From UHGV virus genome UHGV-0182888: a DNA stretch of 17,197 nt, one strand, 5' to 3'. The translations under genes were made by a program, and so were the position numbers. Under the pieces are notes generated by a model. The model saw only the letters and a program-made list of their open reading frames with translations. It was not told the origin of the DNA and made no database searches. Of this stretch, positions 13,759 through 15,682 are shown piece by piece. The DNA comes from a virus. The first letter of the stretch is position 1, and the number at the start of each line of letters is the position of its first letter.

Positions 13759-14130
13759 ATGAGTAATGACCGCATGACCGTAGTGCCAGATTTCCTTGGC
13801 GAACTGGATGCCGGCGTGTTCATGAACAAAATCGCGGCAGCACTTAATACCACCGCGCTTGGCGTTCTGAACAACGGCAACAAAGGCAAAGTAGTCCTCA
13901 CATTTGATTTTGAGCGCATGGGTAATTCCGTTGAAGAGAAGCGCGTCAAGATCAAGCACAAGCTGAACTACAGCACCCCAACACCGCGTGGTAAAGCCTC
14001 CGAAGAGGACACAACCGAAACCCCGATGTGGGTCAACAAAGGCGGGAAGCTCACCATCCTGCAGGAAGATCAGGGTCAGCTGTTCGGGATCACTGGCGCG
14101 GTGGATGGAAAGCTTAAAGCGGCTCAGTGA
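13759..14130 (+). CDS. Hypothetical protein (123 aa), first gene of the early-left operon (YfdP-like by recall)
   Basis: ATG 13759 with SD GAGGG 8 nt upstream; the ORF-track entry 13672..14130 uses an upstream TTG. Acidic/neutral product, not arginine-rich, so not N-like. Confidence 0.65.
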   Translation: MSNDRMTVVPDFLGELDAGVFMNKIAAALNTTALGVLNNGNKGKVVLTFDFERMGNSVEEKRVKIKHKLNYSTPTPRGKASEEDTTETPMWVNKGGKLTILQEDQGQLFGITGAVDGKLKAAQ

Positions 14131-14186
14131 TCCGCAACAACAAACTCACTGATACCACTTCGATCATCAGTTAATAAGGAATTTCT

Positions 14187-15014
14187 ATGTCTCAGTTAGA
14201 CAGCGGTACATTTCAGCAGGTAAAAGACCTGGTCCTTTCTGGCTACCACCTGGATGATATTCATGGTCTGGCTTGCCCGACCGCATTGCTGCCAGATGGT
14301 ACTAGCGTTGAAAGCCTTGAGCGCTTTTCTCTGGAGCGTTTCCGCTTCCGTGGTGCAATGACAACAACCAGTATTGAAGATTTCGCACGTTATTCTATAG
14401 GTTACGCCAGCGCCAGCGATCCAGCCCGTTGCTTCATTGATGCTGACAACATGACCGCTCGTTCAGTGTTCAACATCGGCACCCTGGATAATCCCGGTCA
14501 CGCCGATAACGTTGCTTCGATCACCCTGAAGAAAACCGCCCCGGTCCGCGCGTTACTGCAGATCGATGGTCAACGTCTGAAGCAAAAGCAAATTGCTGAA
14601 TGGCTGGAAGACTGGAGTGATTACCTGCTGGCGTTTGATGCCGATGGTAATACGATGCAGATTTCCCTGGCGGCTCAGGCAGTGCGTCGTATCACCATTC
14701 AACAAGCAACCCAGCAGGACCATGAAACTAGTGATTTCGCTGGTAAAAAATCCCTGATGCAAAGCGTTGAAGCAAGCAGCAAAGACGTAATGCCTGTGGC
14801 GTTTGAATTCAAATGTGTGCCGTATGAAGGTCTGGGCGAACGACGTTTTAGCTTGCGTAACAGCCTGCTGACCAGCGATGAACCCTGCTTTGTTCTGCGC
14901 ATCGTCCAACTTGAAGCCCAGGAAGAAGAGATCGCCAATGAATTCCGCGATCTGCTGATCAGCAAGTTCGACGGTGAATCAGTGGAAACTTTCATCGGTA
15001 ACTTTAAAGCCTAA
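14187..15014 (+). CDS. Hypothetical protein (275 aa), DUF2303/YfdQ-like by recall
   Basis: ATG 14187 with SD AAGGA. Long uninterrupted ORF. Synteny with the HD-domain gene as in CPS-53 yfdQ-yfdR (recalled, not searched). Confidence 0.75.
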   Translation: MSQLDSGTFQQVKDLVLSGYHLDDIHGLACPTALLPDGTSVESLERFSLERFRFRGAMTTTSIEDFARYSIGYASASDPARCFIDADNMTARSVFNIGTLDNPGHADNVASITLKKTAPVRALLQIDGQRLKQKQIAEWLEDWSDYLLAFDADGNTMQISLAAQAVRRITIQQATQQDHETSDFAGKKSLMQSVEASSKDVMPVAFEFKCVPYEGLGERRFSLRNSLLTSDEPCFVLRIVQLEAQEEEIANEFRDLLISKFDGESVETFIGNFKA

Positions 15015-15026
15015 TTGCTCTGCATT

Positions 15027-15055
15027 AAATCCCCGGCGCCGCGGGGATTTATTGA
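15027..15055 (+). terminator. GC-rich hairpin with trailing TTTATT between the YfdQ-like and HD-domain genes
   Basis: aaatccccg (15027..15035) pairs with cggggattt (15042..15050), a 9-bp stem with 6-nt loop gcgccg, followed by tttatt. Confidence 0.5.
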
Positions 15056-15142
15056 AGCGTAATTCCATTAATTATCGCCACCCGGCGAGGGATTCGTGCA
15101 ACCAAAATCTGCGCGGTGCAGCGCGCCAATATGGAGAAAACC

Positions 15143-15682
15143 ATGAGCTACATTCAGACATTATCCGGTAAAAAATTTAACTACCTGACCGCCACAATCG
15201 ACGATATCGATGTTGAAGATATCGCGACAGCTCTTTCCAACATCTGTCGATTCGCTGGGCATCTGCCAGAGTTCTACAGCGTGGCCCAGCACTCTGTGCT
15301 TGTAAGCCAGATTGTGCCGCCAGAGTTCGCCTTTGAAGCGCTAATGCACGATGCTGCGGAGGCATATTGCCAGGATATTCCTGCCCCGCTCAAAGCCCTG
15401 TTACCAGACTACCAACGCATGGAAACTTATGTTGATGGTCTTATCCGCTTTAAATTCGGTATCTCACTTGAACAAGCAGCCGTCGTGAAATATGCCGATC
15501 TCACCATGTTAGCCACCGAGCGCCGTGATCTGGAAATCGATGACGGTTCGAAGTGGGAAATTCTCGAAGGTATTCCCTGCTCTGATCTCGTTCAGGTTAT
15601 CCCTCTCCGTCCTGGTCAAGCCTATGGCCTGTTCATGAATCGCTTTAACGAACTGATGGATCTGCGCCAATGCGCCGCATGA
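15143..15682 (+). CDS. HD-domain metal-dependent phosphohydrolase (YfdR-like putative 5'-deoxynucleotidase)
   Basis: HD motifs FYSVAQHS and EALMHDAAEAYCQDIPAP. Start at ATG 15143 (MSYIQT…) with SD GGAG 6 nt upstream, preferred over the ORF-track start 15116. Confidence 0.8.
   Translation: MSYIQTLSGKKFNYLTATIDDIDVEDIATALSNICRFAGHLPEFYSVAQHSVLVSQIVPPEFAFEALMHDAAEAYCQDIPAPLKALLPDYQRMETYVDGLIRFKFGISLEQAAVVKYADLTMLATERRDLEIDDGSKWEILEGIPCSDLVQVIPLRPGQAYGLFMNRFNELMDLRQCAA

Follow-up and report, generated by a model that had tools for sequence, protein, structure and literature searches.

What do the genes at the promoter-proximal end of an early-left operon do for their phage, and do they do it as a unit? 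The question is raised by viral genome UHGV-0182888: the 17,197-nucleotide stretch analyzed here (the window) belongs to a lambdoid prophage of the Citrobacter type, with its repressor and early-left genes on the plus strand. An initial annotation, made from the letters of the sequence, had singled out three adjacent genes encoding a 123-amino acid protein, a 275-amino acid DUF2303-like protein, and an HD-domain hydrolase of the 5'-deoxynucleotidase type. All three plus-strand open reading frames (ORFs) lie where it had placed them (Table 1), and PHROG, Pfam, and PDB 2gz4 alignments agree with its descriptions of the products; what it missed was that this cluster is known from CPS-53, ST64B, SfV, and LLS and that there are published data on YfdR from Escherichia coli K-12. 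We show here that the genes, named yfdP, yfdQ, and yfdR after their K-12 homologues, form two separable modules, a tightly linked YfdP-YfdQ pair and the HD phosphohydrolase YfdR, with a hairpin between the two. We also show, from the signals that precede them, that all three are predicted to be repressor-controlled, early genes lying 3' of a structured leader RNA. The explanation that we tentatively favor, at slightly less than even confidence and by analogy with the K-12 orthologues, is that their products take over host replication and nucleotide metabolism early on.

The two modules became apparent on comparing relatives at different distances. Of 80 close relatives in IMG/VR, 79 have yfdP upstream of yfdQ and 76 have yfdR downstream of it. 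The yfdR alleles, which are mosaic and ~70, 80, or 98% identical, vary independently of yfdQ identity, and the immunity regions are different as well. The distant sample consisted of eight YfdQ representatives 35-40% identical to the window protein, seven of them with upstream DNA; each of three distant representatives, when used to scan viral contigs, retrieved at most one locus. A YfdP protein (PF27127) is called directly 5' of DUF2303 in all seven of these distant loci, often overlapping the yfdQ start, and a gene of the HD family is recorded 3' of yfdQ in none of the seven. Conversely, the HD gene occurs without the pair in nine of 55 loci that carry the leader RNA and at least 3 kb of DNA downstream of it, in eight of the nine within 4 kb of the RNA. 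The hairpin that separates yfdQ from yfdR comes immediately after the yfdQ stop codon, is GC-rich, and is followed by UUUAUU; the 51-nt stretch around it (15012-15062) has a folding energy of -21.7 kcal/mol (z -3.5), and compensatory changes preserve the stem both in relatives and in K-12 CPS-53. Judged from these features, it is probably a leaky terminator at the boundary between the modules. The initial annotation had treated the three genes as one cluster, which the known yfdP-yfdQ-yfdR order bears out and the division into two modules on either side of a hairpin does not.

The YfdP, YfdQ, and YfdR proteins of K-12 CPS-53 are 59, 55, and 67% identical, respectively, to those of the window over their full lengths, and their genes are in the same order; for YfdR, orthology is indicated by 67% identity over 178 of 179 residues and by the same neighbors. 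The trio is also present in ST64B (sb37-sb35), SfV, phiNP, LLS (gp39-gp37), an E. coli prophage, and many other prophages, and each gene has hundreds to thousands of homologues; all three are real genes. An NCBIfam search gave no usable match. Because the trio has been annotated in CPS-53, ST64B, SfV, and LLS and discussed in print, the cluster must be regarded as already known. CPS-53 (KpLE1), with yfdP-yfdQ-yfdR(-yfdS-yfdT), shares with the window the gene order, the strand, and the hairpin after yfdQ, but it is decayed and has no repressor, pL, or leader RNA, all of which are present in the window. Furthermore, yfdR is followed by yfdS-yfdT in CPS-53 but by four other small ORFs in the window, where neither the ORFs nor the translation of the window end gave a clear homologue of yfdS or yfdT between yfdR and the end. 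The early-left operons of ST64B, SfV, phiNP, and LLS have ~80% DNA identity to the window across the trio; they too carry the trio just after cI and pL, have the same leader RNA, and belong to the Chi-rich class without a Rec module, but they differ in the immunity region and in the variable small ORFs between the leader RNA and yfdP.

The genes lie on the cI strand, 3' of the cI terminator, behind a promoter overlapped by operators that recur between cro and cI, as is characteristic of a lambdoid pL operon. The predicted promoter consists of a -35 TTGACC (13222-13227) and a -10 TACACT (13246-13251) with an 18-nt spacer. Two exact repeats of the operator TGTAAGTTATCC, at 13199-13210 and 13234-13245, flank or overlap it, and a copy with one mismatch is found in the cro/cI intergenic region (12446-12457). 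The repressor terminator, promoter, and putative operators are arranged as expected of OL/pL. No plus-strand ORF of at least 40 codons occurs from the repressor stop at 13161 to 13672, where the yfdP frame opens, and there is therefore no N gene; instead of an N-type antiterminator gene and a nut site, the first element after pL is a structured RNA. With terminator, promoter, and operators all upstream and no such ORF between the repressor and the yfdP frame, the three genes are indeed the first of the early-left genes, as had been annotated. Overall, the region represents the promoter-proximal end of the early-left (pL) operon in a lambdoid prophage of the ST64B/LLS type from a Citrobacter-like host. 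The closest homologues of YfdQ, from Citrobacter freundii, are 98% identical, and the best E. coli DNA matches reach ~89%.

Because the repressor transcript is terminated and the only promoter-like site upstream of the trio overlaps two operators, the genes should be silent in a lysogen. This bears directly on the suggestion that they are morons, i.e., lysogen-benefit cargo expressed from the prophage for stress tolerance of the host and not for lytic growth. Deletion of CPS-53, yfdQ, or yfdS raises the sensitivity of K-12 to H2O2, acid, or methyl methanesulfonate (cited in PMC4776307), and the genes persist in a decayed, cryptic prophage; both observations would suit such a role. Nevertheless, the terminator of the repressor transcript is strong, the operators overlap the sole promoter-like site, and the same promoter-proximal early-left position is found in many intact inducible phages, making this explanation very improbable.

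The first protein of the pair, YfdP, is encoded from an ATG with GAGGG 6-7 nt 5'. All of its listed homologues carry Pfam PF27127 "YfdP" and its gene adjoins DUF2303; the PF27127 assignment comes from precomputed hits of the homologues, as the copy of Pfam that was searched directly had no PF27127 model. An AlphaFold2 (AF2) model, built from a shallow alignment, comprises two helices and three long strands, together with a disordered C-terminal tail (predicted local distance difference test, pLDDT, <50) that contains QGQLF at residues 105-109 (window 14071-14085). The pattern Q-x-x-[LMI]-F is found in 148 of 176 YfdP homologues, distant ones having QSDMF, QGQMF, or QMQMF, but it is missing from two distant homologues, and K-12 YfdP has QGQLL. 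Sliding-clamp-binding motifs include QL[SD]LF and QADMF; at the level of sequence the Q-x-x-[LM]-F of the YfdP tail resembles such a motif, and we regard it as a lead.

YfdQ is a clear member of DUF2303 (217.7 bits against a cut-off of 26.6, over residues 31-273), a family of at least 1361 clusters at 50% identity, all of ~265-285 amino acids, and its AF2 model has a pLDDT of 91.6. The only solved relative by sequence is PDB 9o7m "YfdQ Protein" (E 1.2e-38, or 2.7e-87 with a family profile), for which a literature search found no paper that mentions it. The entry contains 36 YfdQ chains, from which we infer that YfdQ may form a high-order oligomer. The initial annotation had described both upstream proteins as being of unknown function and suggested structure prediction, which was run and gave no recognizable fold for either. 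Phage single-strand annealing, Gam, RdgC, and SSB proteins were considered as relatives of YfdQ or YfdP and rejected, as there was no fold similarity to a solved member.

The neighborhoods of the pair suggest a second explanation, namely that YfdP-YfdQ is a recombination or DNA-end accessory (a mediator, a factor that binds DNA ends, or a modulator of RecBCD) working with host RecBCD and RecA. In three of the seven distant loci, the pair directly follows a YqaJ exonuclease and RecT or ERF, and an SSB gene adjoins the pair in one locus and lies 2.5 kb downstream in another. The window itself contains 15 copies of the Chi sequence GCTGGTGG in 17.2 kb, from 3189 to 15887 and on both strands, where shuffled sequences lead one to expect 0.5, and there is no Rec module between pL and the gene for a DnaQ-type exonuclease; together, these two features place the prophage in the "no Rec module, high Chi" LLS class (Zheng et al. 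2025, PMC12315714). The 36 chains of PDB 9o7m would also be compatible with a filament or a ring. On the other hand, the trio is also found in phages with a complete, separate Rec module, a recombination role has been judged unlikely (Zheng et al., PMC12315714), and the YfdQ family is acidic. On balance we consider this explanation unlikely, at roughly one chance in five.

The start of yfdR deserves comment. Mechanical ORF calling began at GTG 15116 (188 amino acids), but the ATG at 15143 is favored because it gives full-length homology to K-12 YfdR and has GGAG at 15133-15136, 6 nt upstream. The protein matches PHROG 318, "deoxyribonucleoside 5' monophosphate phosphatase" (E 2.8e-94). It carries the H...HD...D signature of an HD-domain metal-dependent phosphohydrolase, its metal ligands H50, H69-D70, and D119 being intact and aligned with those of Atu1052 (PDB 2gz4, E 1.3e-10) and K-12 YfdR. 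YfbR and Atu1052 have the same motif and a similar size, and the window protein aligns with Atu1052 over nearly its full length, but it reaches only 17.0 bits with Pfam YfbR-like PF12917 (cut-off 25.9), and that match is restricted to residues 65-126. It belongs, by these sequence comparisons, to the YfdR/PHROG 318 branch and not to YfbR proper; K-12 YfdR also differs from YfbR in its far lower affinity for nucleotides and in binding DnaA.

A rival explanation is that the HD protein is mainly an enzyme, remodeling nucleotide pools (e.g., deoxynucleoside monophosphates, dNMPs) or destroying defense messengers, with YfdP and YfdQ as unrelated accessories. The intact ligands and the resemblance to HD phosphohydrolases point that way, as does the annotation of the K-12 orthologue as a 5'-deoxynucleotidase and structural homologue of YfbR. 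Phage records with YfdR-like HD proteins number 341 and span many hosts; they include lytic phages of Bacillus, Caulobacter, and Vibrio as well as lytic jumbo phages. Such a spread would suit a host-independent enzymatic role, and the HD gene assorts independently of the pair. Against this, the protein falls under the YfbR-like threshold, and the genetic need in K-12 for yfdQ together with yfdR would be left unexplained. The more specific proposal of the initial annotation, that the protein degrades nucleotide signals used by host defenses, found no support: PADLOC gave no match to a defense or anti-defense model for any of the seven early-left proteins, and no cyclase or effector context for signaling nucleotides was present. 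We know of no HD-type anti-defense family with which the protein could be compared. We judge a mainly enzymatic role, whether in nucleotide pools or against defense signals, improbable, at a little more than one chance in five.

The preferred explanation, early control of replication and nucleotide metabolism in the host, draws on the K-12 data together with three observations: the early and repressor-controlled position, the replication module of the window, and the recombination and SSB neighborhood of the distant pairs. In K-12, overexpressed yfdQ and yfdR with yfdS or yfdT inhibit initiation at oriC, both in vivo and in vitro (Noguchi and Katayama 2016, PMC4776307), and extra copies of yfdQ, yfdR, and yfdS or yfdT suppress over-initiation mutants, yfdQ and yfdR both being required (PMC4776307). 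Purified K-12 YfdR binds DnaA domain I in a Phe46-dependent manner and competes moderately with DiaA and DnaB; it is an HD structural homologue of the dNMPase YfbR but a weak dNMPase with a much lower nucleotide affinity, and the authors suggest a lambda-P-like role in the ancestral phage (PMC4776307). In a K-12 lysogen of SW1, deletion of yfdQ abolished the release of SW1, which was restored by production of YfdQ (Song et al., bioRxiv 10.1101/413146). Domain annotation of the window proteins found an initiator-like protein in the replication module but neither a helicase nor a loader, and host DnaB must therefore be recruited.

On induction or infection, the early proteins YfdP, YfdQ, and YfdR would then bring host DNA replication and nucleotide metabolism under phage control. 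YfdR would bind DnaA domain I at the Phe46 surface used by DiaA and DnaB and, with YfdQ, block new rounds at oriC, while its HD site would hydrolyze (deoxy)nucleoside monophosphates. YfdP-YfdQ is probably a complex acting on the replication or recombination machinery, and the expected net effect is that phage DNA synthesis would be favored. The proposed logic is common to lambda P and Bacillus subtilis SirA, small DnaA-binding proteins that stop host initiation, and SirA and YfdR both bind the Phe46/Phe49 surface of DnaA domain I. There is no sequence or fold relation of lambda P or SirA to the HD enzyme of the window, and the effect of K-12 YfdR is known under overexpression only.

Several points weigh against this explanation. 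The K-12 phenotype came from multicopy overexpression, and the authors themselves allow that it may be an artifact; deletion of yfdQRST had no effect on initiation, YfdQ, YfdS, and YfdT did not bind strongly to YfdR or DnaA, and yfdP was dispensable for suppression (all PMC4776307). Inhibition in K-12 needed yfdS or yfdT, neither of which has a clear homologue in the window. The spread of the HD protein over the hosts of 341 phage records suggests that the ancestral function was more likely a general enzymatic one than the binding of E. coli DnaA. For the pair, the median pI of the YfdQ family is 5.1, the clamp-binding reading of the YfdP tail is drawn from a five-residue pattern alone, and neither YfdP nor YfdQ has a recognizable fold in the solved-structure libraries searched, from which 9o7m is absent.

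The predicted pL transcript begins with the leader RNA, whose ~67 nt form a 7-bp closing helix, P1 (13263-13269 with 13322-13328), and a 5-bp helix, P2 (13296-13300 with 13313-13317), with an invariant 26-nt internal strand and a conserved 12-nt hairpin loop; both helices were recovered by RNAalifold and by the single-sequence minimum free energy (MFE) fold. In a MAFFT alignment of 26 variants, ten of the 12 base pairs change on both sides, a score that none of 500 shuffles reached and that collapses in slid controls. All 12 pairs covary among 69 distinct sequences (score 0.686 vs. 0.18 for shuffles), although this larger alignment was made by a covariance model and is hence fitted to it. The exact core is present in at least 120 IMG/VR contigs and in 51 phage records in GenBank, among them SfV, SfII, ZF40, YeP1, an Aeromonas phage, and T5-like Providencia phages, and Rfam has no match to it. 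In all four records inspected, the RNA is just 3' of an early promoter. It is independent of YfdPQ, the pair being present in 15 of the 55 RNA loci with at least 3 kb downstream. No second copy was found in the window, and none is 3' of pR. The possibility that it is a micro-ORF was rejected because the AUG in the loop is not conserved, being ACG in ST64B-type variants.

The leader RNA may be a put-like cis-acting antiterminator in phages without N, as suggested by its position and size, by the absence of an N gene, and by terminators within the operon. HK022 putL RNA is likewise ~70 nt long, directly 3' of pL, and in a phage without an N gene (PMC9378689), but it has two long stem-loops, unlike the leader RNA with its closing helix, large conserved internal strand, and single hairpin, and HK022 has paired putL and putR sites where the window has a single copy; the agreement is thus limited to position and size. 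Homology to HK022 put was rejected, as neither BLAST nor a covariance model detected similarity to the HK022 pL-nun region and there is no pR-side copy.

The leader RNA, the pair, and YfdR could be combined into one layered host-takeover unit, in which a put-analogous leader RNA replaces N, YfdP-YfdQ docks on the clamp, and YfdR blocks DnaA, shutting down host replication. The leader RNA could allow RNA polymerase past the conserved terminator that follows yfdQ, and YfdP-YfdQ, as a large oligomer, could dock on the host sliding clamp through the disordered tail of YfdP. The whole of this combination is distinctly doubtful, and we would give it about one chance in seven.

Between the leader RNA and the 5' region of yfdP is a stretch that acts as a swap site, window 13333-13491 corresponding to positions 3070-3527 of the E. 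coli relative L001. The window segment (159 nt) contains no ORF and is common to 12 of 83 relatives; at the same site, L001 has a 121-codon ClpX-type zinc-finger ORF before yfdP that is absent from the window. The idea that the 500-nt leader of the window holds a decayed gene was rejected, as tblastn found no trace of the zinc-finger ORF, which is an insertion in the E. coli relative and not a pseudogene here.

Table 1. Features of the early-left region and its immediate surroundings in the window.
Feature	Position	Strand	Evidence
Cro-like repressor gene; first of divergent early-right operon	12208..12405	-	Pfam P22_Cro E 2.4e-21
cI-type repressor (HTH + S24 autopeptidase)	12427..13161	+	Peptidase_S24 E 6.7e-20; HTH_3 E 4e-15
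Intrinsic terminator of repressor transcript	13160..13190	+	12-bp hairpin then U8, -15.6 kcal/mol, z -3.84
pL-like promoter with operators	13199..13251	+	Promoter scan, repeat search
Conserved structured leader RNA, 5' end of predicted pL transcript	13262..13330	+	Covariation, RNAalifold, MFE
yfdP-like gene, 123 amino acids	13759..14130	+	PHROG 204 E 1e-41; 59% identity to K-12 YfdP
yfdQ-like gene, 275 amino acids, DUF2303	14187..15014	+	Pfam PF10065 E 2.3e-64
Terminator-like GC-rich hairpin then UUUAUU, between yfdQ and yfdR	15026..15053	+	Folding, comparison
yfdR-like HD-domain phosphohydrolase, 179 amino acids	15143..15682	+	67% identity to K-12 YfdR; PHROG 318
Four small early-left ORFs (58, 84, 77, 141 amino acids), start-stop overlaps	15670..16749	+	ORF list, PHROG

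The true start of the cI-type repressor is probably an internal ATG near 12505-12511. Downstream of yfdR, the 84-amino acid ORF has a PHROG match to MarR-like winged helix-turn-helix proteins, and the DnaQ-type 3'-5' exonuclease ORF (MIDLESMGKKPNAPIVSIGAVFFDP...; plus strand, frame 3) begins near 16757 within 16750-17197 and is incomplete at the window end. L001 has the same downstream gene order, its DnaQ-type counterpart being followed directly by xis and int. The minus strand carries cro (P22_Cro), a CII-like gene, an initiator-like replication gene (HTH_36 and Phg_2220_C), Dam, and RusA, together with genes for an antirepressor, DUF968, Q, a DNA methylase, holins, an endolysin, and Nu1. 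The Dam methylase domain is confined to residues 19-199 of a 439-amino acid minus-strand ORF (9098-10417), whose C-terminal ~240 residues have no Pfam match. Just 3' of the Q antiterminator gene, 6192-6258 (minus strand) gives a sub-threshold Rfam Trp_leader match (27.3 bits against a gathering score of 41, E 0.061), which could be chance or the terminator region of the late promoter.

As first reported, the cluster adds nothing new, and the modest interest of the locus comes from the biochemistry of YfdP-YfdQ and from the leader RNA. YfdP-YfdQ is a very large phage-specific pair for which the functional leads are solely genetic, in replication initiation and phage production; that it is tightly linked, separable from the HD gene, and often found in recombination or SSB modules narrows the experiments needed. 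The more promising lead of the operon is the leader RNA: it occurs widely, its helices are supported by covariation, and it has no match in Rfam.

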